In this document: piece after piece, positions 2,227 through 62,532 of the stretch
Layout: every line of letters begins with the position of its first letter
How positions within the stretch are numbered: position 1 is the first letter of the stretch
Notes under the pieces: model-generated
What the model saw: the letters and a program-made list of their open reading frames with translations, nothing else
Told to the model about the DNA's origin: nothing
Database searches by the model: none
Made by a program: the position numbers and the translations under genes
Sequence record: MK373784.1
From: Escherichia phage vB_EcoM_MM02
Length of the DNA: 64,000 nt
Reading direction: 5' to 3' (one strand)

Positions 2227-2427
2227 TCACAAGTTACGTTTAAAAATTTCTGCTACTTCAAGAAGTTCTTCTTTAGTAGCTGTATCGGTTTGTATTTTAT
2301 ATCGAATTTCTTTAAAGCGTTCTTTAAAGGACTCTGCTGATTCGATATCAAAAAATCTTTGGATAAGCCGGAATTCCCGGAGCACTGCTTTATCAAAAAG
2401 TTCCAAGTCCACGTTATATGTTCTCAT
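2227..2427 (-). CDS. small hypothetical protein (rIIA.1 position)
   Basis: 66-aa ORF immediately upstream of rIIA on the same strand; synteny only. Confidence 0.4.
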   Translation of the reverse strand: MRTYNVDLELFDKAVLREFRLIQRFFDIESAESFKERFKEIRYKIQTDTATKEELLEVAEIFKRNL

Positions 2428-2519
2428 AATATTCTCTTCAGTAGATTCCTAGGGCACTATTACTAAAGACTGTATAATCTATCATCTTATGTGTAATAGT
2501 GCCTCAGGCGATTCAGGAT

Positions 2520-3620
2520 TTACGCTGTGAAGATTTTATCCCACATCGCAACAACTGCATCTCGGTTATACTTCTTCCATACGGCTTCAGCACGTTTAAC
2601 TCGAGCTTCGTATGTGTCAGTGAATTCTAATACAGCTTTTGTGTAAAGCGCAACTACTTCTTTCTTAGGAGTAGAGGAATCAATTTCTACCCGCACAGTA
2701 TCTGGGTCGTATTCGAATGTCGCGTGCGGATAATCCTTAAAAACTAACTGGATTACAGGGACACCTTTAGAGATGGCTTCAATAGAACTATTCTCTACCG
2801 TACCTGTGTCAGGACACGTATTAATAAGTGCTTTAGCTGTTTTAAGACGTTCCATGATTTCACTGTGTGGAGCATCAATAATAACAGGATATTTAGCCGG
2901 TGGTGCCCATTTGCTTGGACAATAACCAATACCATTTTCGCCTAGTGCTTTAATCGCTTCAAGAGCAACATCAGTACGACGCATTTTAGTGTCATAACGT
3001 TGTGCACTAATAATCAGATCCGTCGCCGGAAGAACTTCTGGCTTTTCAGTCAAACAAATAACCGGATAATCTTCGGCTTCAAACAACGGATTTGCTCGCC
3101 AATAATCATAATCAATTTTGTCAGTCAGACCTGAAGTCATATAACAATATTTACGTTCAAATTCACGGAAGGCTTTAGTAGGAGCATAACTCTTACCACC
3201 GTTCTTACGAATTTGAATAGTCTGGTCCCAAATTTGAACAATGCCACGAGATACCGGTTCAAATGGTGTTGCCATAAAATTCTTATGAACTTTAGAGAGA
3301 CCTGCGTCTTTAATTGCCTGAACGGTTAGTTTAGTCGGTTCCATAGTAACAACAAAATCGTATTCATGGATGCCGGCTAGTTCAACAATCTTACGAGCCA
3401 TAGTATAACTCATACCTAGACTGAATTTAGTCAGATGACCAACAGGATGATGATTAACCTTCCAATCACCAAATGTGTCATTATCAAAACCGATATAATC
3501 GATATCAGCACCGATGGACACAAGATATTTCAACACATTTAAATGTACTGCTTCAAGACCACCTTGTACACGTTCTGGGTTAAATGGGACTGCACGAGAT
3601 GGGATAAACATAACTTTCAT
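2520..3620 (-). CDS. putative GT-B fold glycosyltransferase (candidate DNA hmC sugar transferase)
   Basis: 366 aa. N-terminus MKVMFIPSR...GGLEAVHLNVLKYL and C-terminal TGTVENSSIEAISKGVPVI resemble the two conserved GT4/GT-B segments (N-terminal Rossmann start and the E-x7-E region). Not present at this position in T4. Confidence 0.5.
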   Translation of the reverse strand: MKVMFIPSRAVPFNPERVQGGLEAVHLNVLKYLVSIGADIDYIGFDNDTFGDWKVNHHPVGHLTKFSLGMSYTMARKIVELAGIHEYDFVVTMEPTKLTVQAIKDAGLSKVHKNFMATPFEPVSRGIVQIWDQTIQIRKNGGKSYAPTKAFREFERKYCYMTSGLTDKIDYDYWRANPLFEAEDYPVICLTEKPEVLPATDLIISAQRYDTKMRRTDVALEAIKALGENGIGYCPSKWAPPAKYPVIIDAPHSEIMERLKTAKALINTCPDTGTVENSSIEAISKGVPVIQLVFKDYPHATFEYDPDTVRVEIDSSTPKKEVVALYTKAVLEFTDTYEARVKRAEAVWKKYNRDAVVAMWDKIFTA

Positions 3621-5968: not shown

Positions 5969-6148
5969 TTAACCCTTCTTAAGTAAGTCGTAAAAACCAC
6001 CGTTCACATGTTTAGGAGCAGAAACCCGACGAGTAGACAGACGATGACATTCAGGGCAAACATCGTTTTCTCGTTCAGAAATTCTTTTAATTTTTTCATA
6101 TTCATGACCACAATCTTCAGATTGACATTTATAGTCGTATAACGGCAT
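5969..6148 (-). CDS. FmdB-family zinc-ribbon protein (59 aa; not in supplied ORF track)
   Basis: Hand translation: [59 protein letters not shown]; MPxYxYxC..CGH..E start and CxxC...CxxC are typical of FmdB-type zinc ribbons; start overlaps upstream stop (TAATG). Confidence 0.45.
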   Translation of the reverse strand: MPLYDYKCQSEDCGHEYEKIKRISERENDVCPECHRLSTRRVSAPKHVNGGFYDLLKKG

Positions 6149-6579
6149 TATTGTTCCTTAAAGTGAGCTTTCAACATTTGATACAAAGACCATGCCTGGT
6201 CGTTATTTTCGATAGTAATCGTCATCACCGGAAATTCAGACAATTCATCAAGTTCACCAGAATCTTGCTCTTCGGACGCTTGATATGGATTTCCAACTTC
6301 GTCAAAGAATTCTGCTTCATTCGTGGAGAGCCAGATAAAGTTTTCATCAAGGATATCACCGCCTGTTGCGTATCCAACCGTGCCAGTAGATGTCACAATT
6401 TTAGTAGGACGACCAAGATGGTCAACATCTAATACTTTAAATGGTTCCATGCCAAGACGTCGTGCATAAATCCCATTATCAGTGTGGTCTTTAATAAACT
6501 CTTCTTGGGCACGTTTATCTTTAAATTGGTACCATGAGTTAACGCGGAATTTATTAGCCATTAGTAAGTTTCCTTCCAA
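6148..6579 (-). CDS. hypothetical protein
   Basis: 143-aa ORF. Confidence 0.4.
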
Positions 6580-6833
6580 TAAGTTGTACCATTTTCAGTG
6601 ATTTCACGGAAGATACCATAGATAGGCATTTCATCGCCGAGTTTTTCGTAAACGTAAACCACTTCAGTGTAGCATAAAAATTCAGTCCAGTTTTTCTGTA
6701 CAACAACTAAATCAGGATTAAACAGAACATCTTCAAACTCATCGATGTTTGAATCAGTAGTTACGTTTTTAATGATTTGACGTTTCATAATATTCTCCTC
6801 TTGTTTTGATAGGTCTATAGTATCATAGACCAT
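6561..6833 (-). CDS. hypothetical protein
   Basis: 90-aa ORF; promoter-like element just upstream (approx. 6800-6850). Confidence 0.35.
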
Positions 6834-6845
6834 AGTTGTTGTACA

Positions 6846-7370
6846 TCATTTTAGCAAAATAAAATCAACTTGTTCTGCCAATGAACGTCTAAACATTAAT
6901 TGACAACTTCCGAGGATGAAATCAGGTGCTTCATAGACCGCGATGTAGTATCCTTTAGCTTTCAAGAGTTCAACATCCACCTGGTCATCAAACCATGCAT
7001 AAACCGCGTCAACACTTTCAAATCCAAAATAGAACCCTTGAGCCCAATCTTCACTCAATTCAAATGCGTGCTCAATTCTATAGTATCTTAAGATATTTTG
7101 TTCAAGGAGTTTGTCTTCATTTACTGTAGGACGATTAGGGACATTATAGTTGTCGCCGTGATGGTAGAAGTTACCTGAGATTATTCCATGTTTATCAAGG
7201 AACTCCCATGTTTCTTCAGAGTTGTCGGTGCCCGACCAACCGTATGGCGAACGAGGTTCTTTATTCCAAGAGGTTTCCCAAATTCTGACGGCTTTACCGT
7301 CTTCGATAGCAATTCCTGGTAATGATTCACGTTGAGTACAAAAACTACGTTCTACGCGGTAAACTAACAT
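6846..7370 (-). CDS. hypothetical protein
   Basis: 174-aa ORF; GAGGAG RBS and promoter cassette upstream. Confidence 0.4.
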   Translation of the reverse strand: MLVYRVERSFCTQRESLPGIAIEDGKAVRIWETSWNKEPRSPYGWSGTDNSEETWEFLDKHGIISGNFYHHGDNYNVPNRPTVNEDKLLEQNILRYYRIEHAFELSEDWAQGFYFGFESVDAVYAWFDDQVDVELLKAKGYYIAVYEAPDFILGSCQLMFRRSLAEQVDFILLK

Positions 7371-7394
7371 ATTATTCTCCTCTGGTTGATATGG

Positions 7395-7425
7395 TTATAA
7401 TATCAAAACCAGAGGAGAAGTAAAC
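7395..7425 (-). promoter_or_regulatory. sigma70-like early promoter (GTTTAC, 17 bp, TATTAT) inside an inverted repeat
   Basis: Reverse complement of gtaaac at about 7420-7425 and tataata at about 7396-7402; 9-bp inverted repeat (cctctggtt / aaccagagg) flanks the -10 and overlaps the GAGGAG RBS. Confidence 0.45.
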
Positions 7426-7429
7426 TACT

Positions 7430-7849
7430 TTATGCAAAAGATGCTTGGCTATATCCTTTGATTTGGAATTCAGGAACTACCATGAACTGTCCGGCGAAAA
7501 CGATGTTATAAAGCTTAACACCATCTTCAACCCATTGGTCTGAAATAAAACCAGCGACTTGATTCGTTGTCCATGGAGACCCATCAGTTGCGGCAGCAAT
7601 AGTAAATTCATGGTCTTTTACAACTAAAACTGACCTGCACAGTTTCCATTTGAACGCTTTTTCTTCTGGTTCAATGAACTGGCTTGAGACGTAACCAATG
7701 TTACCATTAACATCTCGAACTTTAACTTCGTTACGTCCAAAAACCGGATCACTCACAGAAAGAACTTCAACCAACTTCCCGGCAACTTTAGAGCGAGAAG
7801 CAACAGATACATATACGTAATCACCTGTAGAGAGATTTACAATATTCAT
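7430..7849 (-). CDS. hypothetical protein, member 1 of a tandem paralog triplet
   Basis: 139 aa; C-terminal ...VAGFISDQWVEDGVKLYNIVFAGQFMVVPEF shared with the next two ORFs. Confidence 0.5.
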   Translation of the reverse strand: MNIVNLSTGDYVYVSVASRSKVAGKLVEVLSVSDPVFGRNEVKVRDVNGNIGYVSSQFIEPEEKAFKWKLCRSVLVVKDHEFTIAAATDGSPWTTNQVAGFISDQWVEDGVKLYNIVFAGQFMVVPEFQIKGYSQASFA

Positions 7850-7858
7850 AATAATTCC

Positions 7859-8323
7859 TTAAGCTTTACGAGGAGACACATAGCGAGTGATTTCAGATTC
7901 TTTAACAACTCGGAAGTCACCTAAGAATACGATATTGTATAACTTTTCACCATCTTCAACCCATTGGTCGCTAATGAAGCCACACATAGTACCAGTTTTG
8001 CTTGGATAACCGTATTCATCGATGAAGTCAAATTCTTTATCAGTCTGGAATTCAACACCTTTACACAAGGCCCATTTGAACTGTGTAGTAGGCTCAACGA
8101 TATCGCTTGAAGCAAAGTGGGCACTTACACGAGTTTCCAAGAATTTAGGACTTACATAGGCGAACTGAGTTTCAGTTTTTCCAGAACTGGGAATGATTCG
8201 AACTTTAACTTCTTTAATACGGCCTATGCCATTAGTACGAAGTCCTACCACTTCAACCAGCTTTCCTGCAGCTTTAGAACGAGACGCTGTCGATACACGT
8301 TTAATTTCACCAATATTAATCAT
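7859..8323 (-). CDS. hypothetical protein, member 2 of a tandem paralog triplet
   Basis: 154 aa; C-terminal ...CGFISDQWVEDGEKLYNIVFLGDFRVV; N-terminal ...SRSKAAGKLVEV like member 1. Confidence 0.5.
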   Translation of the reverse strand: MINIGEIKRVSTASRSKAAGKLVEVVGLRTNGIGRIKEVKVRIIPSSGKTETQFAYVSPKFLETRVSAHFASSDIVEPTTQFKWALCKGVEFQTDKEFDFIDEYGYPSKTGTMCGFISDQWVEDGEKLYNIVFLGDFRVVKESEITRYVSPRKA

Positions 8324-8354
8324 ATTTTTTTCTCTCTTTGTTTAAGTTGAATTC

Positions 8355-8384
8355 ATTATACTCCATCCATCCTTGGATGTAAAA
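8355..8384 (-). promoter_or_regulatory. early-promoter cassette, variant copy of the attatactcca...ccttgg...gtaaa repeat
   Basis: attatactccatccatccttggatgtaaaa; -10 TATAAT and -35-like TTTTAC on the minus strand. Confidence 0.4.
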
Positions 8385-8386
8385 TA

Positions 8387-8881
8387 TTAATTAAGAATAT
8401 TAACTACTGCACTACGTGGAACTACACTAAAATCACCTGCGTGAACAACGTTCAGAAGTTCAACACCGTCTTCAATCCACTGATCAGTTACCCATCCACT
8501 CACTGGACCTGCGAATGGACGTCGAATTGAAACAGCTTTACACAACAAATCAGTAGGCTCAATAGGCTTAATCAGAGTACCGTACATACAAGCGATATCC
8601 ATATCAATACAGATGTCTTTAACGGGTTCTACTTCTTCAATCAACAATTCAAAGTCAGTGCTTGGAAGGGCGGTAGTAGAAATTGTACCGTGTGAATTTT
8701 TAATTTCTAAGAATAACCAAGGGCCTTCAGCTTGTTTGATGAAGTTAACAATAGTGAAACTATTACCTTGAGTGGCACCTAAAATTTCACAAAACTTTTC
8801 ATAAGCTCGCACTGAAGCACCGTACCAGTTGATTTGTTTTTCGTCTTTCAGGATGTAAGTAGCCGTAGTATTGATATTCAT
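8387..8881 (-). CDS. hypothetical protein, member 3 of a tandem paralog triplet
   Basis: 164 aa; C-terminal ...SGWVTDQWIEDGVELLNVVHAGDFSVVP. Confidence 0.5.
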   Translation of the reverse strand: MNINTTATYILKDEKQINWYGASVRAYEKFCEILGATQGNSFTIVNFIKQAEGPWLFLEIKNSHGTISTTALPSTDFELLIEEVEPVKDICIDMDIACMYGTLIKPIEPTDLLCKAVSIRRPFAGPVSGWVTDQWIEDGVELLNVVHAGDFSVVPRSAVVNILN

Positions 8882-8912
8882 AATGTTTTTCCTGTTTGGT
8901 TAAGATAGAAAG

Positions 8913-8942
8913 ATTATACTCCAACCATCCTTGGTTGTAAAC
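8913..8942 (-). promoter_or_regulatory. early-promoter cassette, repeat copy (GTTTAC, 18 bp, TATAAT)
   Basis: attatactccaaccatccttggttgtaaac; spacer contains palindrome CAACCA/TGGTTG. Confidence 0.5.
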
Positions 8943-8947
8943 CGGTT

Positions 8948-9625
8948 TTATCGCTGTTTTACACTTAACGGGTCAGGATTCTCAGGGACATCTTCAAGGC
9001 CAAGCGCATAACGCTGAGCATATTTTAACATCAAAATATCTTTAGCACAATCATGAATACTATCATGGGCAACGAATCCTTTTAGCGTACCCATCGGTAA
9101 TGGACACATACTTAATCCTCGTGTCAACGAGTAAGCTTCGATTGCCGTACGAATATCACGTTGAGCCCAGAATTTAACCGGTTCTAATTTATCAGTATCA
9201 ATATCTGGTTCAAGAACACCTTCAACACGATAGAGGTCACGAATCAAATCGACCAAGATCGGGAAGTCAAAGCTCATACCACGGCACCACATCTGTGATT
9301 TCCATTGGTCAACTTTATTAGCTCGACAATAATCTAAAAAGATTTTAATGCCTTCAAGCGTAGTGACATCGTCTTCAGACGGGGCCAAGTTTTTACGTGC
9401 TTCTGCTGATTGTTCTTTCCACCATTTCATAGTGGATTTAGCGAAAACTCGCTTCCCTTTCTGAGAAGCTAAATTAAATTTAATTCGCTTACCTCGTTGA
9501 ACAAGTTCTTCAAATGATTCAACAACTTCAGGGTCGGAATTATATGCAATAACCGCAAGGTCAATAACAGCCGCTTTTGATGTATTGCCGAATGTTTCAA
9601 AATCTATAATAACATCAGTGCTCAT
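8948..9625 (-). CDS. dexA: exonuclease A (DnaQ-like 3'-5' exonuclease)
   Basis: 225 aa; IIDFETFG Exo-I (DxE) motif; size and position as T4 dexA, adjacent to dda. Confidence 0.7.
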   Translation of the reverse strand: MSTDVIIDFETFGNTSKAAVIDLAVIAYNSDPEVVESFEELVQRGKRIKFNLASQKGKRVFAKSTMKWWKEQSAEARKNLAPSEDDVTTLEGIKIFLDYCRANKVDQWKSQMWCRGMSFDFPILVDLIRDLYRVEGVLEPDIDTDKLEPVKFWAQRDIRTAIEAYSLTRGLSMCPLPMGTLKGFVAHDSIHDCAKDILMLKYAQRYALGLEDVPENPDPLSVKQR

Positions 9626-9634
9626 AATTTTCTC

Positions 9635-10948
9635 TCAAATAAAATGGACGTCAAAACGACCACGAGTTGTGCCGACATACAATAACTGTTTAGCTAATTC
9701 TGAATCGGCATAATGGATACACGGTGTATAAACAAAGGCTGTGTCAACAGACATACCCTGGGCCTTATGGAAGGTTGATACAGGTAGTGCCTTCACCTTA
9801 GTGAACATACGTTTAGCATCCCAGAATTCGCTCCATGGAGCTTTACCACCTTTATTCCAGAATTTGTATGTTTCTGCGGTCTTAGCCAAAAACAAATTGA
9901 ATTTATAAAGCTCTTCTTCAGAAGAAATAACCTTTATATCTTCGCGGATGTATTCTTCATCATCCCCATATGTTTCTACTGTAAGATTCCAGTATCGTAT
10001 CATATATTCGCCCGAAACACCACGTGCTTTAACGAATGTAGACGTTTCTACAGCATCTCGAATACGAACGAATTGCCCGTTATTGAAAAGCATTTCGGTC
10101 ATATTTTTACCATCTAGCTTATATGTCTTAGTAAATGGCTCTTGTAGAACAATGACTTCGTCTTTAATAAATGGTTTTTCTGTTTCAAGAAGTTTTCGGC
10201 GAATAATTGAATTTAACTTGTCCACCGACTTATTTGTGAATGCCATCATTCGATTTTCGAAAAGGTCTTCAGGAGTTTTAACGACGTTAAAATAGTTCAT
10301 CATATACGATTTAAGGTCTGTATATCCGTGAACACCGTGTCCATCAACTACTTTATCGTAAATCCATTTGCCATTACGAATATCAGTCGCAACATCAATA
10401 ATTGGTGCATTGCTACGTTTAACTTCTGTAAGGTTGCATTGCACAAAGTCTTTGTGAGTGAAGAAAGGACTTAGATACGCAGTTGATTCGCCTGGGTCTA
10501 CCGGACGAATCTGGCATCGGTCGCCGATTCCAATTACTGTACACCATTTAGGGATACTAGCTAACATTATTTTAAACAGAGAACGGTCGCACATTGACGC
10601 TTCATCAAATAACAGTACACGACACAAGGCTAAGTCGGGAACCTTTTTCTGTTCAAACAATACGTTTTCTTCGTATGTAGTTGGGTTGATTTTAAGAATG
10701 CTATGAATAGTCGATGCTTCTTGACCCGCGAGTTTGCTTAGAACCTTTTTAGCAGCATGTGTAGGGGCTGCTAAAATAATACCTGATTCTCCTGAAGAAA
10801 TAAGAGCTTCAACAATAAATCTAGTAAGGGTTGTTTTACCTGTACCAGCCGGTCCATTAATAGTTACATGATGTTTCTTTTCTTTAATAGCTTCCATAAC
10901 AACGTTGAAGGCGTTTTTCTGGCCTTCAGTCAAATCATCAAATGTCAT
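9635..10948 (-). CDS. dda: Dda SF1B DNA helicase
   Basis: 437 aa; Walker A TINGPAGTGKTT; size and synteny as T4 Dda. Confidence 0.85.
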   Translation of the reverse strand: MTFDDLTEGQKNAFNVVMEAIKEKKHHVTINGPAGTGKTTLTRFIVEALISSGESGIILAAPTHAAKKVLSKLAGQEASTIHSILKINPTTYEENVLFEQKKVPDLALCRVLLFDEASMCDRSLFKIMLASIPKWCTVIGIGDRCQIRPVDPGESTAYLSPFFTHKDFVQCNLTEVKRSNAPIIDVATDIRNGKWIYDKVVDGHGVHGYTDLKSYMMNYFNVVKTPEDLFENRMMAFTNKSVDKLNSIIRRKLLETEKPFIKDEVIVLQEPFTKTYKLDGKNMTEMLFNNGQFVRIRDAVETSTFVKARGVSGEYMIRYWNLTVETYGDDEEYIREDIKVISSEEELYKFNLFLAKTAETYKFWNKGGKAPWSEFWDAKRMFTKVKALPVSTFHKAQGMSVDTAFVYTPCIHYADSELAKQLLYVGTTRGRFDVHFI

Positions 10949-14884: not shown

Positions 14885-14951
14885 ATTGTTCTCCTCTTGA
14901 GTAAGTAAGAATATCTTAACACAGGTTTTAGTGGTTGTAAACTGTAGAAAC

Positions 14952-14978
14952 AAAAAAAAAGGAATCCCGAAGGATTCC
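14952..14978 (-). terminator. rho-independent terminator downstream of soc (UUCG-loop hairpin + U9)
   Basis: Plus strand aaaaaaaaa ggaatcc cgaa ggattcc; on the minus strand a 7-bp stem with UUCG loop followed by nine U. Confidence 0.6.
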
Positions 14979-19570: not shown

Positions 19571-19828
19571 CTATTTTAAACTTTTTCGAAATTTGCGTTT
19601 TTCTTGACGAATCTGTCGTTTAGTCGGACGTACAGCAAATTTAACGAAGTCCACTTTGCCGTGTGGAAACTTTTCAGATGCTTCGCAGTCCATCATTAGT
19701 TCCCATCCTTCCAGAATAAGAGCTTTCCATTGTGTAGTTGATGCAAATTCGTATGTTGATGGTTTAAACACAGTTGAATACATATTATCCTCTGAAATCA
19801 GCTTCAAAAACTTTCTCGTCATTAACAA
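19571..19828 (-). CDS. hypothetical protein
   Basis: 85-aa ORF. Confidence 0.35.
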   Translation of the reverse strand: MLMTRKFLKLISEDNMYSTVFKPSTYEFASTTQWKALILEGWELMMDCEASEKFPHGKVDFVKFAVRPTKRQIRQEKRKFRKSLK

Positions 19829-20290: not shown

Positions 20291-20296
20291 TTTGTT

Positions 20297-20345
20297 CTCC
20301 AGTAGTTGATAGGTCTATAATAACACAACTACTGGAGAAGTAAAC
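20297..20345 (-). promoter_or_regulatory. early promoter with -10 in the loop of a perfect 12-bp inverted repeat that includes the downstream RBS
   Basis: Arms ctccagtagttg (about 20297-20308) and caactactggag (about 20326-20337); -10 ataata at about 20317-20322, -35 gtaaac at about 20340-20345 on the minus strand. Confidence 0.5.
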
Positions 20346-20720: not shown

Positions 20721-20786
20721 AATGTTTTCCTCTTGGTTGGTATAAGTACATCATATCATGCCTAGAGGAAGATGTAAACCCCGAAA

Positions 20787-20807
20787 GGAGACCGAAGTCT
20801 CCTTTTT
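20787..20807. terminator. GC hairpin (ggagac cgaa gtctcc) with T-run, immediately downstream of gene 41
   Basis: T5 tract follows the hairpin on the plus strand; U-rich but interrupted tract on the minus strand; orientation ambiguous. Confidence 0.35.
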
Positions 20808-30418: not shown

Positions 30419-30458
30419 ATTTCTCTCATTTAATTAGTTGGCCGTCCTTGGCATTATA

Positions 30459-33170: not shown

Positions 33171-33251
33171 TTAATTTCCTTTAGACGAGTTATTGTCTTT
33201 TGTTTGTTGATGAACTTATTATACTCCAAATGGGACCGAAGTCCCATTGCT

Positions 33252-43509: not shown

Positions 43510-43850
43510 GACTTAATTTCCTTCGCAATTGAACAGAAGATACCACGGTCACAAAGCATTTCACCAATTTCTGGATATTTGATTGAACGGTACCAAACAT
43601 CCAGGCTTGAAACTCTGGTTATCTGTATGGCATTACCATTGACAGAATAGTACTGGTCAACCTTAATTTCTTTATCTTCAATTGTCATTTTATTTTCCTC
43701 TATAGTAGATGGTTTAATCTTAACACATCTATTGAGGATGTAAACTGTTTTATGAAAATATTTTTTGATTTGAGAGGGGCACAAGGAGATAGTGAAGTGA
43801 AGATTCCAATGGATTATATTAGAAATGAGATAAAGAAGACCAGGCGGCAC
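43506..43850 (-). CDS. hypothetical protein
   Basis: 114-aa ORF. Confidence 0.3.
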   Translation of the reverse strand: MPPGLLYLISNIIHWNLHFTISLCPSQIKKYFHKTVYILNRCVKIKPSTIEENKMTIEDKEIKVDQYYSVNGNAIQITRVSSLDVWYRSIKYPEIGEMLCDRGIFCSIAKEIKS

Positions 43851-45260: not shown

Positions 45261-47074
45261 TGGTGTTTAACCCTATGCATGATTTCTTTATTTTTACCGA
45301 GATTAAATCCGCGCTCGTTCGGATTTCCCAAATAGCCGCATGTTCTTCTTATAGTGTTCATCTTTTTAGGATCAGTTTCTCCACAAACTGAACAAACAAA
45401 TCCGTTTTCAGTAGGAGTCATCTCATGGGTACTTCCACATGTAAAACATTTATCTACTGGCATATTAACACCAAAATAATCTAAATGTTGTGCAGCATAA
45501 TCCCAGACAGCCTCGAGTCCCTTTAAATTGTTTTTCATATCAGGAAGTTCAACATAAGAAATGTGACCACCTGTCGCAATGAAATGATATGGCGCTTCAC
45601 GAGAAATCTTTTCAAACGGAGTAATATTTTCTTCTACTGAAACATGGAAACTATTAGTGTACCAGCCTTTATCGGTAACATCCTTTACATTTCCATATTT
45701 TTCTGTATCGAGTTTACAGAAGCGATAACAAAGGTTTTCAGCAGGAGTAGAATACAAACTAAAAGCAAATCCAGTTCTTTCGGACCACTGTTTAAGATGA
45801 GCATTCATTTTAGTTAAAATTTCTTGCCCAATATCACGACCGACAAGAATATTCAATTCGTGAATACCAATGTATCCTAAAGACACTGAACTTCTACCGT
45901 TTTTAAATAACTCAATTATGTCGTCATCAGGTTTAAGACGAACCCCGAATGCACCTTCTTGGTAAAGAATAGGAGCAACAGTAGCTTTAACTCCTTTTAA
46001 GGAACTAATTCTACACATCAAAGCTTCAAAACATAAATCCATTCGTTCATTGAATAATTCAACAAATTTCTGTTCGTTAAATTGCGTTCCAATATAAGAA
46101 TCTAACGCGATGCGAGGAAGATTCAATGTTACAACACCAAGATTATTGCGACCATCAAGAATTTCATTACCGGTCGAATCTTTCCATACGCTCAAGAAAC
46201 TACGGCAGCCCATTGGAGAAACAGGAACTGAAGAACCGGTAATAGCTTTATTATTCTTAACCGAAATAATGTCAGGATACATTCTTTTGCTTGCACATTC
46301 TAACGCAAGTTGTTTAATATCATAGTTCGGATCATCTTTATAAAGATTAACACCTTCTTCAACAAACATAACAAGTTTAGGAAAAATAGGAGTTATTCCA
46401 TCACGACCAAGACCTTTAATGCGGTTTTTAAGAATTGCCTTCTGAATCATTCGTTCGGTCCAGTCAGTTCCCGTACCAAATGTAATTGTTACAAAAGGCG
46501 TTTGTCCGTTTGAACTAAAGAGAGTATTTACTTCATATTCATAAGCTTGGAATGCATCGTATACATCTTTTTCTGTTTTGGATTGAGCATAATTCAACGC
46601 ATCAGCGATTTGCCATTTTTCTGCATCCTCAATATGTTTAGCGTATGTGCGTTTAACATAAGGAGAAAGAACTTTATCTACATTCGCAAATGTAGTTCCG
46701 CCATACTGGTGTGAAGCAACTTGTGCGGTAATTTGTGCCATAATTGCAGTAGCAACGCCAATAGATTTAGGCGTTTCAATTTGAGCATTGCCTAATTTAA
46801 ATCCATTCTCAAGCATTCCTTTTAAATCTACTAAACAGCAATTAGTAAAAGGCAATGATATACTGTAATCTAAATCATGAAAATGAATTAATCCAACATT
46901 ATGGGCATTTACAATATGACTTGGAAGAATACGACAAGCGATATGTTTAGAAACAATACCGGCCATTAAATCTCTTTTTGTTGGAAAGACACGAGAATCT
47001 TTGTTGGCGTTTTCGGTATTTAATTCTTTATCTTTATTTGAAATAAAATTTAAAACATCTTTCTCTAAAGACAT
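45257..47074 (-). CDS. nrdD: anaerobic ribonucleoside-triphosphate reductase NrdD (glycyl radical enzyme)
   Basis: 605 aa; C-terminal Zn site CFTCGS...CSVCG and glycyl-radical motif RRTCGYLG; uninterrupted. Confidence 0.9.
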   Translation of the reverse strand: MSLEKDVLNFISNKDKELNTENANKDSRVFPTKRDLMAGIVSKHIACRILPSHIVNAHNVGLIHFHDLDYSISLPFTNCCLVDLKGMLENGFKLGNAQIETPKSIGVATAIMAQITAQVASHQYGGTTFANVDKVLSPYVKRTYAKHIEDAEKWQIADALNYAQSKTEKDVYDAFQAYEYEVNTLFSSNGQTPFVTITFGTGTDWTERMIQKAILKNRIKGLGRDGITPIFPKLVMFVEEGVNLYKDDPNYDIKQLALECASKRMYPDIISVKNNKAITGSSVPVSPMGCRSFLSVWKDSTGNEILDGRNNLGVVTLNLPRIALDSYIGTQFNEQKFVELFNERMDLCFEALMCRISSLKGVKATVAPILYQEGAFGVRLKPDDDIIELFKNGRSSVSLGYIGIHELNILVGRDIGQEILTKMNAHLKQWSERTGFAFSLYSTPAENLCYRFCKLDTEKYGNVKDVTDKGWYTNSFHVSVEENITPFEKISREAPYHFIATGGHISYVELPDMKNNLKGLEAVWDYAAQHLDYFGVNMPVDKCFTCGSTHEMTPTENGFVCSVCGETDPKKMNTIRRTCGYLGNPNERGFNLGKNKEIMHRVKHQ

Positions 47075-47886
47075 AATTCTAATTTATCCTTTTGAAATTC
47101 TTCGTCTAAATATGGGTTCCAACCCATTTTAAACCTTTTGATGAAATTATCAATTCTAAATTTCGGTAAGTTTAAATCCGCAAAAATAGATGATTTACTT
47201 TTAAAATCTGGACCTAAATAATCATATAAAATTTCTGCGTATTTTAACCATAATATACAAGTACCGGATTTAATTGCGTTCGGAGTTTTCCAAGGTTTTA
47301 CACCATACATCGGATTTCCACTTCCTTTATGCCTGATAGAAGATGAAATTCCAATTTTAATTTTAGCTTCCTTTGTATGCGAAAATCCACGATGCGGATT
47401 TTCTTTCCAGTATTTTTTAGAAGCTTCTGATATTTTCTTTCTGGCTAAATTAGTATGATGCTTTCCATAAAATCCATTATTTTTGCCTTTATTACGATTT
47501 CTTTTAATCATGGTTATTGATTGCTTTTCTCTAGTTTCTTTAGAAGGAGAAATACCATATGTCGTAAATTTGCCATCAGCATATGCTAAATTAAAATACT
47601 CTTTATTCCATACATCTTTTTCTATATTCTTTTGAAATTCAGCTTCAATGCTAGTTATTTGTTCATCTCCGACTAATTGAAAATATAATATTTCAACTTT
47701 CGGCGTTTCTTTCAATAAGGCTTTTTGAAATTCGGAAGATGACGAAGACGAATAATAAAATTTACCATTTTTATCAATAATATTCGTTCCATCAAAAGTG
47801 CAATTGGTTTTACTTCCAATGTAATAATATGGTGGGGTTTTAGCATTAATTCTATTAATAAATGATAGTTTATATACTACATTCAT
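47065..47886 (-). mobile_element. free-standing GIY-YIG homing endonuclease gene (Seg/I-TevI-like) with NUMOD3 repeats
   Basis: 273 aa; GIY-YIG core VYKLSF...PPYYYIGSKTN; NUMOD3-like repeats GKHHTNLARKKISEA, SHTKEAKIKIG; overlaps nrdD start by 10 nt. Confidence 0.7.
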
Positions 47887-51537: not shown

Positions 51538-51565
51538 AATATTTTCCTCTCGTTAAGATAAATTC

Positions 51566-51595
51566 ATTATACTCCAACCATCCTTGGTTGTAAAC
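51566..51595 (-). promoter_or_regulatory. early-promoter cassette, repeat copy
   Basis: Identical 30-mer attatactccaaccatccttggttgtaaac. Confidence 0.5.
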
Positions 51596-51599
51596 TGAT

Positions 51600-52559
51600 T
51601 TATGATTTTAACGCATTCATTGCGTTAAAAAGTTTAGAGTACTGCAACTGGAGCTTGGTAACTACTTGTTGAGCATCACGAAGCTTAGCTTGTGCTTTGT
51701 CAAGTTCAACAGACAGTTGGTCCATAGTGGCCTTGATTTGATTATAATGGTAATCTTCGACCGGAAGAAGGTCATTAGAAACATTTAGTTTTACTGCAGA
51801 CAGTTTGCACACATTTGGCAAACCTTTAAACATTGATTTACCCGAAGTAGAATAAGCACTTAGGACTTCGGCCTGTTCAATTGGGGTTGCAGTAATTGAC
51901 GCTTCGAACGTTGCATTTTCCTTTTTAAGATTTTGATAGTATTCAGAGTCTTTGTGCCACCATGGCGCAGGAACCTTTTTACCAATAGATACACGAGCCT
52001 GGATAGCGATATGGCCCTTATTCTTGATAGTGTTGATAATATTAAGCTCACGAGAATAAATTGCTTTAATCTGGTGGATATTATCACCTAAAACTTCCAA
52101 CGCTTGGTGGAATACACGAGCAACGTTATCATTCTTAGGTTTATACGTAAGAGTGAACTCGTTCTCACTGATAACCATGATTTCTAACTTATCGTAAGTA
52201 TATTTCAAATGTTTCATGTTAATTGCTTGAGGACGAATACGAGAAGCAATGGCCATCAGATTGTTAAGGTTATTCCGGAACTGCTTAGCGAAATATTGTC
52301 CTTCACCGCCAATACAAAAATTACGAAGTTTCTGTTTGGCCAATAAACGGCTGAACTCGCCATTTTTAATGAACTCTTTAACGGGTGTGTTAGTAACGCA
52401 TTCAAATTGAGTAAACTTACGAGAAGTAATACCATAATATGAACAGACTTCCTCAATCTCTTCAGGAGTCTTTACAGGCATACGGATAGGATTAGGTCCT
52501 GGAGTATATGCGTTCGAGGTAAATTCTTTGATAAGTTCTCTACGTGTAATAAAAGCCAT
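51600..52559 (-). CDS. hypothetical protein with C-terminal coiled coil
   Basis: 319 aa; preceded by repeated promoter element. Confidence 0.4.
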   Translation of the reverse strand: MAFITRRELIKEFTSNAYTPGPNPIRMPVKTPEEIEEVCSYYGITSRKFTQFECVTNTPVKEFIKNGEFSRLLAKQKLRNFCIGGEGQYFAKQFRNNLNNLMAIASRIRPQAINMKHLKYTYDKLEIMVISENEFTLTYKPKNDNVARVFHQALEVLGDNIHQIKAIYSRELNIINTIKNKGHIAIQARVSIGKKVPAPWWHKDSEYYQNLKKENATFEASITATPIEQAEVLSAYSTSGKSMFKGLPNVCKLSAVKLNVSNDLLPVEDYHYNQIKATMDQLSVELDKAQAKLRDAQQVVTKLQLQYSKLFNAMNALKS

Positions 52560-52585: not shown

Positions 52586-52615
52586 ATTATACTCCAACCA
52601 TCCTTGGTTGTACAT
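52586..52615 (-). promoter_or_regulatory. early-promoter cassette, repeat copy (-35 variant GTACAA)
   Basis: attatactccaaccatccttggttgtacat. Confidence 0.45.
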
Positions 52616-53610: not shown

Positions 53611-53672
53611 AACTATTTCCTCAGATTGAATTGGAACTCAAAACCATTATAACCCGTCCTTGGGTAAAGCGT

Positions 53673-54200
53673 TTATGCGTGAACCGTCTTTAAACGTTCT
53701 TCAAATTTCCGAAGAGTACTAATACGTTCTGCTTTCTGTTTTGTATAGTTTGCAATACGTTCTGAAGTGAGAGCGTATCGTTCGTTTACTGATTCTTTCA
53801 TGAAGTCAGGGATTTCACGAGAAGCTTTAATTTCATCAAACTTATCGAGTACTGCCTGGTCTTCAGCGATTAAATTTTCGTACATCTCGATATCTTTCTT
53901 GATAAACTCGATATCTTCCTGGGTTACTTTGGATAAACGAGATGCTTTATCCTTTTTGTACTGCTCGTTAGTTTCACGAGACCAGAATAATGTACGTTTT
54001 TTGTTAGTGTTTTTGTAGACTTCCACAATTCCAACTGAATCGATGATAACAATCCAATTCCAGCGAGATTTGAAAATCTGGCCTCCGTCCACGGTAATCT
54101 CGTTACCATAAGCAATGTCATTAAAGAACTTACTTTGTGCTTCAGATTTAAATTTACCGTCGTTATAATTTACCAGGTTGAAAATATCTTTAGCGTTCAT
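53673..54200 (-). CDS. hypothetical protein
   Basis: 175 aa; GGAGGT RBS; promoter cassette upstream. Confidence 0.4.
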   Translation of the reverse strand: MNAKDIFNLVNYNDGKFKSEAQSKFFNDIAYGNEITVDGGQIFKSRWNWIVIIDSVGIVEVYKNTNKKRTLFWSRETNEQYKKDKASRLSKVTQEDIEFIKKDIEMYENLIAEDQAVLDKFDEIKASREIPDFMKESVNERYALTSERIANYTKQKAERISTLRKFEERLKTVHA

Positions 54201-58823: not shown

Positions 58824-58924
58824 AACGTTCTCCTCTAGTAAGTAAGGACTACTATAACACAACCTGAGGAGAAGTAAACTGATAGATGCCAAAAAGCCCC
58901 AACCATAAGGAAGGGGCTAGTAAA

Positions 58925-59227
58925 TTAGATAGATGTAGGCTCTAATTTTATTTTCATGAACTCGGCAAATTGTCTGGCAGTTTTTATGCCTTGTTCATGA
59001 CATTCAAATGCATCATCACAGGGACTATTTTTGTAATGCTTTGCCATATACTTATAGAATTTTTCAGAATTCTCGACATTTTGAATTTCAAACAAAGTAT
59101 ATACGTTTTTAATCCCTGATTCCATAAAGTTATCAAAATATGGGTCGATATGTGCAGTACCAACGATAGGAGTTGTTGCTGCAAAAAACCCCAGCATCGC
59201 TATGACAGCTATCGCTCTTAAGGCCAT
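58925..59227 (-). CDS. small secreted protein
   Basis: 100 aa; signal peptide MALRAIAVIAMLGFFAATTPIVG. Confidence 0.35.
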   Translation of the reverse strand: MALRAIAVIAMLGFFAATTPIVGTAHIDPYFDNFMESGIKNVYTLFEIQNVENSEKFYKYMAKHYKNSPCDDAFECHEQGIKTARQFAEFMKIKLEPTSI

Positions 59228-59239
59228 ATAGGCCTCCTG

Positions 59240-59452
59240 TTAATTTTGGCCAGTATTTATTTTTCGCCTTTGGACGGCCTTAACATCTGCGAGGTATTTT
59301 TCCAGCTTGCGCTTGCGTGTATAATCAGCTTTAGAACCAGTTTGACGGATATCCTCGTTTAAATGAGAAATAGAATGTCCTAATTCTCTTCGGATTTCAT
59401 CTAATTGGGTTACAGTAAGATTACGAAGTTGTCTTTCGTTTAATTGCTGCAT
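59240..59452 (-). CDS. hypothetical protein
   Basis: 70-aa ORF. Confidence 0.3.
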
Positions 59453-60249: not shown

Positions 60250-60477
60250 TCATTTAGGTTCACCTTCTTTAACGAAATCTGGGTAAGGGTAAAATCCTGA
60301 GTAAAACCCTTCACCTTTATGATTGCTACAACCTTTGTTCGAACAGTAACACCAATAATCAAAATCACAAGCCATTTCGTCATTGCATAAAGCAAAAACT
60401 ACAGGCCATTCGCATTTTTCGCATTTAGCACCTGTAAGAATTTTTGTTTGACTCATAGCCATGTCACCTTTAAGCAA
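60250..60477 (-). CDS. small Cys-rich protein
   Basis: 75 aa; CEKCEW...CYCSNKGC. Confidence 0.3.
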   Translation of the reverse strand: MLKGDMAMSQTKILTGAKCEKCEWPVVFALCNDEMACDFDYWCYCSNKGCSNHKGEGFYSGFYPYPDFVKEGEPK

Positions 60478-60661
60478 TATTCTTCTACATGTTGTTTACG
60501 GCCTTTCTTATCAATAAAGGTATATTCAACGAATGTTCCGATGTAGTCTTTATCTACATCATGTGGACTATTAATTGGACATTTGGTACGACAAATGCGT
60601 TCCCATTGACGAATAATTACTGCCTTATTCTTTGGGTCATATGGATGTGGATAATGTATAT

Positions 60662-61159
60662 TCATAATAACGGTTCCCAATCAACAATCACAATTTCTAG
60701 TTTAGTAGAATACGTATCTAAAATCTCTTCGATGACATCCCAGTTTCCACCACCAATACCTGCACCAATTCTTGGCATATAAATTACAGGCTTTATTATC
60801 TTATTCTTTCCGAATTCATTTAATTCTATTATACAATTCATTAAAGCAGAGTACTCAAAATTAGGTCCCGGCTCAAACTGTGTATAAAGATTAAAGCAAT
60901 AAGCTTTATGGGTCTTAAAATATTTTTCATAAACCGAATAAGTCCCTAGTTTAGACTCGTCTCCGAATTCGGTTTGAAGTTTATCGGCTTCCAGAATTTT
61001 TGGATAAGCCTTTGCTAATTGTCCTGCCACACCCGCGCCCATTGTATGAAAACAATTACACCCATGAGCAATATTATTACCTTTAGAAAACAGGGCGACA
61101 ATATCGCCCTTGATATAGTTTTTAATCACTTGCTGCAAGTCCTCTATTATAAGAGTCAA
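60662..61159 (-). CDS. macro-domain protein (TARG1/DarG-like ADP-ribosyl hydrolase family)
   Basis: 165 aa; AHGCNCFHTMGAGVAGQL and PRIGAGIGGGNW resemble the two signature loops of TARG1-type macro domains. Confidence 0.55.
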   Translation of the reverse strand: MTLIIEDLQQVIKNYIKGDIVALFSKGNNIAHGCNCFHTMGAGVAGQLAKAYPKILEADKLQTEFGDESKLGTYSVYEKYFKTHKAYCFNLYTQFEPGPNFEYSALMNCIIELNEFGKNKIIKPVIYMPRIGAGIGGGNWDVIEEILDTYSTKLEIVIVDWEPLL

Positions 61160-62016: not shown

Positions 62017-62475
62017 CTAGATTTTAATCACTGCTTTAGAAGCTTTTCCTGGTAGTCGTTTATTGTTAATAATAGCCATTCTGCATTGAAGAGTCTTCAT
62101 TTTGAATGCCGGATTTTCGCGACAAACTGTAAGTCCTAACCAAAGATTTCCGTCAGTTATTTCTAAACGGCCTGGACGATACTCGACACCTTCGACAAAA
62201 TCTTCATCAACATCTGGACGTGCCGGCATTGATAAAAATTCTGCAACTTCTTTAACGTGATTTTTTACTTTATGAAATAATTCAAAAACGTAATTCTCAT
62301 CTATTTCTCTCTGGATGGCACGATCTAAGAGATGTTGAGAATACTTGATATGAAAGCCTGGTAGTCCAAGAGACTTTGCAGCATCTTTTATACCGACATT
62401 TATTTTGCGGAACTCCGTTTCAAAGATTCGACGGAGTTTATTACGGCGGATAAAAACTTCCGAATTGATAGTCAT
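62017..62475 (-). CDS. regB: RegB sequence-specific endoribonuclease
   Basis: MTINSEVFIRRNKLRR...KYSQHLLDRAIQREIDENYVFELFHKVK... matches my memory of T4 RegB; start trimmed to ATG preceded by GAGGAGA. Confidence 0.85.
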   Translation of the reverse strand: MTINSEVFIRRNKLRRIFETEFRKINVGIKDAAKSLGLPGFHIKYSQHLLDRAIQREIDENYVFELFHKVKNHVKEVAEFLSMPARPDVDEDFVEGVEYRPGRLEITDGNLWLGLTVCRENPAFKMKTLQCRMAIINNKRLPGKASKAVIKI

Positions 62476-62481
62476 TTTGAT

Positions 62482-62532
62482 TTCTCCTCTAGTTGACAAG
62501 TCTATAGTAACACAACTAGAGGAGAAGTAAAC
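62482..62532 (-). promoter_or_regulatory. early promoter upstream of regB with -10 in the loop of a perfect 13-bp inverted repeat that includes the regB RBS
   Basis: Arms tctcctctagttg / caactagaggaga; -10 (rc of atagta) at about 62504-62509; -35 gtaaac at about 62527-62532. Confidence 0.5.

Follow-up and report, generated by a model that had tools for sequence, protein, structure and literature searches.

A repeated promoter-like element with a spacer hairpin bounds gene deletions in Mosigvirus phages

Background

Conserved promoter-early stem-loop (PeSL) cassettes have been proposed, and partly shown, to mediate modular gene shuffling in the T4-type phage pairs RB49/phi1, T4/PST and KVP40/nt-1 (PMC2839356, PMC4122927). 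This work describes a 30-bp element, the 30-mer, that is repeated in a 64,000-nt stretch of Escherichia phage vB_EcoM_MM02 (MK373784.1; the whole stretch is referred to as the window). The element combines the anatomy of an early promoter with a palindrome located between the -35 and -10 hexamers, and genes standing between its copies have been lost in related phages. A first-pass annotation of the window had likened the repeat to PeSL cassettes and had proposed that its copies delimit gene cassettes.

Binding hairpins of the CsrA/RsmE type are also among the closest described structures. The CsrA consensus obtained by SELEX is RUACARGGAUGU, with the GGA in the loop of a short hairpin of four or fewer pairs; the repeats of CsrB read CAGGA(U/A/C)G, and RsmE binds an ANGGAN hexaloop (PMC7652899).

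A repeated element with the anatomy of an early promoter

The 30-mer (ATTATACTCCAACCATCCTTGGTTGTAAAC) is present without mismatch as copies 1 and 3, with two mismatches as copy 4 and with three as copy 2 (Table 1), and 100 shuffles of the sequence contained zero matches to it. Two of the three mismatches of copy 2 form a compensatory stem pair (CATCCA..TGGATG). The likeness among the copies runs past the 30-mer to about 50 nt, and the repeat around copy 1 reaches from about 8899 to 8948. The palindrome CAACCA-AGGA-TGGTTG occupies positions 6-21 of the 30-mer, inside the -35/-10 spacer. Both the repeated 30-bp element and the spacer palindrome of the first-pass annotation are confirmed.

Read on the gene strand (minus), the 30-mer is GTTTAC-AACCAAGGATGGTTGGAG-TATAAT with an 18-nt spacer; in the sigma-70 frame, TTTACA-N17-TATAAT, 11 of 12 positions are matched. 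A promoter scan of positions 6000-10000 returned copies of the 30-mer as its two best promoter-like sites. Each copy starts 4-10 nt past the stop codon of the upstream gene and is followed by a Shine-Dalgarno sequence and an ATG, which lies 55-58 nt past the -35 in all four cases. The A+T content of the 25 nt located 5' of the element is 64%, 84%, 76% and 68% in the four copies (window average about 63%). The element thus shows the GTTTAC -35, the 17-18 bp spacer, the TAtaAT -10, the gene-strand orientation and the downstream early gene of a T4-type early promoter. Early promoter 50.0, as the orthologous site is annotated in T4, follows the same design (GTTTAC-TTTG-CCACA[AGGA]TGTGG-TATAAT, loop in square brackets), and this homology suggests that the 30-mer is likewise active as a promoter. 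The element would then be a T4-type early (sigma-70) promoter packed in the 55-65 nt gap between two genes of the same strand.

Gene loss between copies and mapped crossovers

Two genes bounded by a pair of copies, nrdC.5 and a motB.1-like gene, are absent from part of the relatives. In phage F2 and in the complete relative WFL6982, nrdC.6 is joined straight to nrdC.3 via one element and nrdC.5 is gone. The element at this junction combines the copy 4 -35 (ATGTAC) with the flank found downstream of copy 3, and the F2 junction is contiguous, with nrdC.5 absent, in 21 of the 155 matching records. Since nrdC.5 is present in both T4 and RB69, its loss is likelier than its gain.

For the motB.1-like gene, the query was an artificial chimera to which copy 1 contributed the core with its upstream flank and copy 2 the downstream flank. 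It gave contiguous, full-length matches of 100% identity in 19 records, which represent 17 phages; the gene is missing from at least 17 Mosigvirus genomes, and the annotation of JK42 lists motB directly after dexA. Copies 1 and 2 can be told apart by their initial base, by the compensated stem pair and by either flank, which allowed the crossovers to be placed in four classes: within the -35 (phi25-307, RPN187), within the hairpin, where JK42 retains the mismatched hybrid CAACCA..TGGATG, between stem and +1 (AV114, S143_2, ST2), and in the 5' untranslated region (JK45). Because the junctions are hybrids of two parental copies, the deletions occurred via recombination between the repeats, several times, and the four distinct crossover intervals within the repeat point to recurrent, homology-driven events. 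All four combinations of presence and absence of the two genes occur among the genomes.

Copies of the 30-mer therefore do coincide with gene-content breakpoints among related phages. The cassettes named in the first-pass annotation were only partly recovered: the motB.1-like gene (at least 17 genomes) and nrdC.5 (21 records) are bounded by copies and leave one chimeric element behind, but a recombining pair delimits only one gene of the proposed paralog triplet and one of three nrdC genes.

In the mechanism that we propose, the repeat unit of 30-50 bp, standing as direct repeats 558 bp and 1020 bp apart, would serve as substrate for homologous recombination by the phage, since direct repeats of the same unit allow crossing over between copies. 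Each crossover would remove exactly one promoter-plus-gene unit and leave a working chimeric promoter.

Two further observations concern the copies themselves. The dexA/motB junction of AV109 is complex, with two tandem hairpin cores 27 nt apart (GTTTACAACCAAGGATGGTTGGAG-ATGTT-GTACATCCAAGGATGGATGGAGTATAAT, locus about 125-190), and looks like a slipped or secondary recombination product. From +1 to +8, the copies at dexA/motB.1 (8905-8912) and at nrdC.5/nrdC.3 (51558-51565) show the same dimorphism in different genomes, with alleles CTTTCTAT and GAAT(C/T)TAT, which hints at sequence exchange between copies 43 kb apart.

Other differences among relatives and a second promoter family

As a control, comparisons were made of the whole window with WFL6982 and of its first 50 kb with JK45. 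Relative to WFL6982 there are seven other differences, a list enlarged by the comparison with JK45, and a repeated promoter bounds none of them. These differences comprise the insertion of a GIY-YIG-like open reading frame (ORF) at 47065-47886, I-TevII, a 187-bp gene, two replacements, a 503-bp tandem duplication and deletions at 19591-19795, 59200-59277 and 60261-60672 in WFL6982 or JK45, which are gene-sized or small. The clearest shared stretches at the deletion ends, read as microhomology, measure 5-6 bp (GAACC for 60261-60672, GATTTC for 19591-19795), with no repeated promoter. The effect thus belongs to near-identical repeats of 30-50 bp and not to promoters in general.

Some of these loci deserve separate mention. 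The 19591-19795 deletion stops about 25 nt upstream of an early promoter. The ORF at 47065-47886 (minus strand), placed between nrdD and gene 49 where the GC content of the window is lowest, encodes 273 aa whose N-terminus is GIY-YIG-like (..PPYYYIGSK..). It is absent from WFL6982 and JK45 and is probably a Seg-type homing endonuclease insertion. In JK45, a 503-bp tandem duplication at 2412-3420 (window 2412-2912) makes an extra ORF between rIIA.1 and the next gene, and I-TevII is inserted in nrdD.

The first-pass annotation had also proposed a second, larger repeat family. This family exists, as GATAGGTCTATAATAACA (at most three mismatches) has 10 matches where 0.14 are expected, but it has no support as a recombination substrate: it bounded none of the seven other indels in the comparisons with two relatives, and its copies share 60-80% identity. 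In about 7 of the 23 early promoters, the spacer is the reverse complement of the Shine-Dalgarno region of the downstream gene itself. The duplexes between spacer and Shine-Dalgarno region have z-scores of -2.8 to -6.5 with the -10 in the hairpin loop, and their stems vary in sequence while complementarity is kept. Transcripts started at such a promoter would be without the 5' arm of the duplex. The same design is found in T4 at dexA/motB.2 and nrdC.9/nrdC.8.

The spacer palindrome as a hairpin in RNA

The stem of the palindrome covaries across Mosigvirus, Dhakavirus and T4. A scan of the IMG/VR collection, in which the stem bases were left free and AGGA was fixed, yielded the Dhakavirus stems CATCCA/TGGATG, CATCC/GGATG and CTTCCA/TGGAGG, the last of which pairs by U.G on the gene strand only; as the IMG/VR scans returned 12 and 5 loci only, they served to collect Dhakavirus variants and are too few for statistics. 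Further stem variants are CAACCA/TGGTTG, CCACA/TGTGG, GCCA/TGGC, TACCA/TGGTA, ACCC/GGGT and CACCA/TGGTG. In the nrdC cluster of T4, the hairpin core is found in three promoters, namely early promoter 50.0 (CCACA[AGGA]TGTGG), the middle-type promoter nrdC.8/nrdC.7, where TACCA[AGGA]TGGTA overlaps the -10, and nrdC.4/nrdC.3, where the hairpin site is decayed. When nine distinct sequences were aligned at the loop, 90.7% of the cells paired; shuffles reached 65%, and slid partners gave 18-44%. In four of the six stem pairs both sides change, and the core C-A-A-G-G-A-N-G (CAAGGA(U/C)G) is invariant in the aligned copies.

The hairpin stands 3 to 10 nt from the -10, depending on the site, and is outside any spacer at 30441-30452; it thus appears as a module independent of the promoter hexamers. 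In WFL6982, the intergenic DNA that separates minus-strand ORFs (about 10 kb) has hairpins with an ANGGAN loop 8 times in sense and 0 times in antisense orientation, where shuffles of that DNA gave 1.07 +/- 0.99 hairpins (maximum 4 of 500). We infer from the sequence that the palindrome is a strand-specific hairpin that acts in RNA. Because the start site of its own promoter lies downstream of it, the hairpin would be present only in RNA reading through from promoters further upstream.

A search of Rfam gave no family at gathering score anywhere in the window; a Y_RNA match at 8639-8732 (minus strand), inside the motB.1-like coding sequence, reached 28.2 bits against a gathering score of 38 and is taken as chance. 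A mini-ORF starting from the loop (AUG GUU GGA GUA UAA) was considered and rejected, as its AUG follows AAGG without any spacing and is missing from the GGAC variants.

Genomic context, variant copies and distribution

Window positions 7000-10000 match 294 phage records, with Escherichia phages NicPhage (99.0%), APCEc01 (98.6%) and other Mosigvirus members at the top. The relatives of the window, at 96-99% identity, are members of Mosigvirus (RB69-like, T4-type), and the window itself represents the early region of a phage of this genus. Its numbering corresponds to the usual rIIA-first coordinates and its minus strand carries nearly all genes. The gene order at 6.5-11 kb is dda, dexA, three MotB-family genes and cef, the nrdC cluster at 50-54 kb comprises nrdC.8, nrdC.6, nrdC.5, nrdC.3 and nrdC.2, and regB is located at about 62017-62475.

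BLAST with the 30-mer returned 209 phage records, all Mosigvirus or Dhakavirus (JS98 group). Mosigvirus genomes match in 2-4 places each, Dhakavirus in one place adjoining an nrdC.3/4-like gene. Beyond the range of the window, WFL6982 has two further hairpin-bearing early promoters, after rnlA and in the gene 30.x region, and a third after alt with the loop AUGGAU. Sense-strand hairpins with ANGGAN loops are found in this outer part of WFL6982 at 118656, 124490, 133134 and 137069; three of the four lie in early-promoter spacers (alt, 30.x, rnlA) and one between nrdA and nrdB.

The partial copies that the first-pass annotation placed near 53650-53680 and 33205-33235 are real, but differ in kind from the 30-mer (Table 1). 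The former is a middle-type variant with a MotA-box-like sequence, and has counterparts in T4 and Dhakavirus. It is called a middle promoter in the annotation of SA35RD, by pattern only, and reads aaaCGCTTTA, 13 nt, TATAAT, in which a C replaces the T of TGCTT; the MotA box is (a/t)(a/t)(a/t)TGCTTtA at 12 +/- 1 bp from the -10 element (PMC2988021). The latter is a half copy with a UUCG hairpin, and has only GGAG-TATAAT and the start of the transcribed region in common with the family (22 of 25 bases with copy 4). The ortholog of the stand-alone hairpin in WFL6982 is TGTC[ATGGAC]GGTA, with an altered stem and the loop AUGGAC.

Table 1. Positions of the 30-mer copies, related sites, bounded genes and promoters of the second family in the window
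Feature	Position	Strand	Description
Copy 1	8913..8942	-	GTTTAC-N18-TATAAT, spacer hairpin CAACCA[AGGA]TGGTTG; between dexA stop codon and motB.1-like gene
Copy 2	8355..8384	-	TTTTAC-N18-TATAAT, compensated hairpin CATCCA[AGGA]TGGATG; between motB.1-like gene and motB
Copy 3	51566..51595	-	Identical 30-mer; between nrdC.5 stop codon and nrdC.3
Copy 4	52586..52615	-	Same core, -35 = ATGTAC; between nrdC.6 stop codon and nrdC.5
Cassette 1: motB.1-like gene	8387..8881	-	164 aa; PF17613, phrog_2333; between copies 1 and 2
Cassette 2: nrdC.5	51600..52559	-	319 aa, DUF7235; between copies 4 and 3
Variant	53646..53670	-	MotA-box-like CGCTTTA-N13-TATAAT, hairpin ACCC[AAGGAC]GGGT; between nrdC.8 and nrdC.6
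Half copy	33218..33247	-	regA stop codon, UUCG-loop hairpin ATGGGAC/GTCCCAT, TT-GGAG-TATAAT; upstream of gene 43
Stand-alone hairpin	30441..30452	-	GCC[AAGGAC]GGC, 6 nt past gene 43 stop codon, after TATAAT; outside any promoter spacer
Second-family example	7375..7437	-	GTTTAC-TTCTCCTCTGGTT..TATTAT..AACCAGAGGAGAA-ATG; spacer = reverse complement of the gene's own Shine-Dalgarno region
Spacer/Shine-Dalgarno promoters	62476-62532, 20291-20345, 7371-7425, 43689-43745, 58824-58879, 20721-20779	-	

A candidate CsrA site

The hairpin has the sequence features of a CsrA site, namely the invariant core CAAGGA(U/C)G, a GGA in the loop and stems of 4-6 pairs. Early promoter 50.0 of T4 holds ACAAGGAUGU, from which the Mosigvirus form CCAAGGAUGG differs solely by the swap of an A-U for a C-G pair. 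The one variable position of the core (U or C) is the N of ANGGAN. Copies 1, 3 and 4 and the variant copy at 53646 have a second GGA, which is 34-38 nt away from the loop and belongs to the ribosome-binding site downstream. CsrA tethered at the hairpin would, together with this GGA, block translation of the downstream gene on read-through RNA only. That the hairpin is a binding site of host CsrA, silencing the downstream gene on read-through transcripts only, is a possibility that we put forward tentatively. Stabilisation of CsrB in the course of T4 infection has been reported in one paper (PMC9697503).

A wider proposal, which we consider rather doubtful, is that T-even-type phages embed host CsrA hairpins in the spacers of some early and middle promoters, by which read-through would be silenced while transcripts from the promoter itself escape. 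The second family would reach the same outcome without a protein, via the anti-Shine-Dalgarno sequence in its spacer, and both designs would together form a group of 'promoter-embedded translational insulators'. If true, this class would connect the host Csr system directly with T4-type gene expression for the first time.

Weighing of the explanations

We consider it probable that the 30-mer is a promoter-hairpin repeat between whose copies genes are deleted. Several points weigh against this explanation or its CsrA extension. The hairpin is weak: folds of 86-101 nt around the copies are no stabler than shuffles (z -0.03 to -1.1), and the minimum-energy fold of copy 1 favours another pairing, so that stability alone lends no support and the hairpin is supported by covariation and strand bias. 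The invariance of the loop is partly built in, as AGGA was fixed in the scan pattern and the T4 sites came from a hairpin scan, and several of the 8 enriched hairpins of WFL6982 are copies of one element and not independent. Promoter use and read-through in the present phage are inferred, and the direction of the nrdC.5 event, with deletion likelier than insertion, depends on the presence of this gene in both T4 and RB69. Homology alone would suffice for recombination, with no sign that the hairpin itself promotes it. As to CsrA, copy 2 is without a second GGA at the ribosome-binding site, the second GGA is not specific because GGA is common in T4-type ribosome-binding sites, and no paper linking CsrA to T4 mRNAs was found in the literature searched.

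The element could instead be a canonical PeSL, in which the stem-loop, as intrinsic terminator or attenuator, would halt transcription arriving from upstream ahead of a new early promoter. PeSLs are indeed defined as promoter plus stem-loop cassettes flanking variable ORFs, including the 43-51 kb regions of T4/PST (PMC2839356, PMC4122927), and classic PeSL-like layouts exist in the window, with a UUCG hairpin or U-run just upstream of GTTTAC at 20779-20805, 14942-14965 and 58879-58900 (minus strand) and a stable UUCG hairpin followed by UUU at the regA/43 site. The 30-mer hairpin, however, lies between the -35 and -10 and not upstream of an AT-rich block; it has 4-6 pairs with few G-C and is followed by GGAGUAUAAU without a U-run, and a terminator scan of 6000-10000 found nothing at either copy. 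A conserved loop on a freely covarying stem suggests a factor that recognises the loop, which a terminator does not need, and we regard a terminator function as quite unlikely. Cleavage by RegB, in which the GGAG directly 3' of the stem, with UAUAAU after it, is a RegB/S1 site on read-through early mRNA, is unlikely as well but could coexist with the promoter-hairpin explanation; the cut would separate both cistrons and leave the hairpin as a protective 3' end. RegB is encoded in the window and cuts GG^AG in intergenic regions of early mRNAs, with consensus GGAGRAYARAA (PMC3014915, PMC1702504), and the T4 motB leader GGAGUAUAAAA, a model RegB substrate, is homologous to GGAGTATAAT of copy 2 and its downstream leader. 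Yet GGAGUAUAAU(C/G/A) departs from the consensus at positions 10 and 11, with U and C/G/A in place of the favoured A, the stem engages the first G of GGAG in a pair, and early promoter 50.0 and the middle-type copies have the hairpin without GGAG. The loop GGAU was also considered as RegB site and rejected: in published data 28 of 30 intergenic GGAU of T4 are resistant, and the two that are cut lie elsewhere. In the motB.1/motB gap of T4 (T4 locus 1642-1792), an early promoter with its -10 in the loop of a GGGACC..GGTCCC hairpin is followed by GGAGTATAAAA, the published model RegB site. As GGAGTATAAAA aligns with GGAG-TATAAT of copy 2, the same bases belong to an RNA site of the leader in T4 and to a -10 box in the present phage.

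Two explanations dispense with an RNA hairpin. An inverted repeat within a promoter spacer might be a double-stranded DNA operator for a dimeric shut-off regulator, e.g., an adjoining MotB-like paralog, given that two copies lie upstream of MotB-family genes (PF17613) and that the paired change in copy 2 could mark a paralog-specific site. This is very improbable: AGGA, at the centre, lacks symmetry and stands on the gene strand in every case (8 sense, 0 antisense), one variant pairs by U.G on the sense strand only, the hairpin is found anywhere from 3 to 10 nt from the -10 and falls outside any spacer at 30441-30452, and the stem bases vary with a freedom that would be intolerable for a sequence-reading protein. 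The copies might also be mere leftovers of tandem gene duplication, functionless as palindromes and located at indel boundaries by coincidence. The flanked genes do belong to paralog groups (the MotB family and three nrdC genes of similar size), and the copies, restricted to Mosigvirus and Dhakavirus, number only 4-7 per genome. Copies 1 and 3 are nevertheless identical over 30-44 nt while standing 43 kb apart beside unrelated genes, the stem covaries with a fixed loop across three genera, and the hybrid junctions with crossovers in four intervals contradict such an origin, to which we give hardly any credence.

Comparison with known systems

The promoter-hairpin repeat resembles the PeSLs in most respects. 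Both are repeated units of a sigma-70-type early promoter, a stem-loop, a Shine-Dalgarno sequence and a start codon; both are found in variable early regions with small, non-essential genes, and the flanked ORF of either is deleted or exchanged when copies recombine. One crossover at an RB49 PeSL was mapped to the loop (PMC2839356, PMC4122927), as is the case for JK42 here. The difference lies in the arrangement: the terminator stem-loop of a PeSL stands just upstream of the promoter (PMC4122927, PMC2839356), whereas that of the 30-mer is nested in the -35/-10 spacer, has no G/C-rich stem and no U-run, is not terminator-like and carries a conserved ANGGAN loop. The family is also smaller, with 4-7 copies per genome, and the pairs analysed in the PeSL papers did not include the Mosigvirus/Dhakavirus lineage (PMC2839356, PMC4122927). 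The parallel drawn in the first-pass annotation therefore stands for early promoters with a stem-loop and for deletions at the copies, but not for the location of the stem-loop and the missing U-run. In recombination the 30-mer behaves as a PeSL does, but one defining feature is lacking, the upstream terminator stem-loop; it is a compact PeSL variant and not a member.

In T4, early promoter 50.0 (nrdC.5/nrdC.4) and the nrdC.8/nrdC.7 middle promoter are the nearest counterparts, at orthologous or paralogous nrdC positions, with the same hexamers and a CA-AGGA-UG core in the spacer. They differ from the 30-mer by another stem sequence, a hairpin located 4 nt nearer to the -10 and the lack of GGAG. 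The T4 copies, not being near-identical to each other, are poor substrates for recombination. In T4 genes e, soc, 49 and I-TevI, a promoter lies inside an RNA structure such that only transcripts started at it are translatable, which is the same logic as in the second family; these are late promoters within stable helices, whereas the promoters here are early ones (PMC3014915). The 30-mer hairpin itself does not pair with the Shine-Dalgarno sequence, unlike the sequestration in e, soc, 49 and I-TevI.

With the CsrA/RsmE hairpins of the glgC leader and the CsrB repeats (PMC7652899), the 30-mer shares a GGA in the loop of a short, weak hairpin. Its core CA(A)GGA(U/C)G matches the CsrA-type CAGGA(U/A/C)G and ACARGGAUGU, and in most copies a second GGA stands at the ribosome-binding site within bridging distance, as in glgC, although a GGA at this place is common in T4-type phages. 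The 30-mer hairpin is located upstream of the start site of its gene, which would limit the candidate CsrA action to read-through RNA, and the literature searched held no phage example of the use of a CsrA-type hairpin.

The deletions described here are natural cases of gene loss, with crossovers placed within 5-10 bases, in a well-sampled genus of about 150 genomes. They show that short repeated promoters drive recurrent, precise gene loss, by which the neighbouring gene keeps a working promoter each time. The PeSL idea is thereby extended to the RB69 lineage, and since promoter and stem-loop can be nested, the range of arrangements to search for is widened. The conserved loop offers a concrete hypothesis (CsrA, or RegB) for a post-transcriptional signal common to T4, RB69-like and JS98-like phages. 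Gene loss by recombination was to be expected from the work on PeSLs, yet it is unusually well resolved here; the conserved, CsrA-like hairpin would be the unexpected part.

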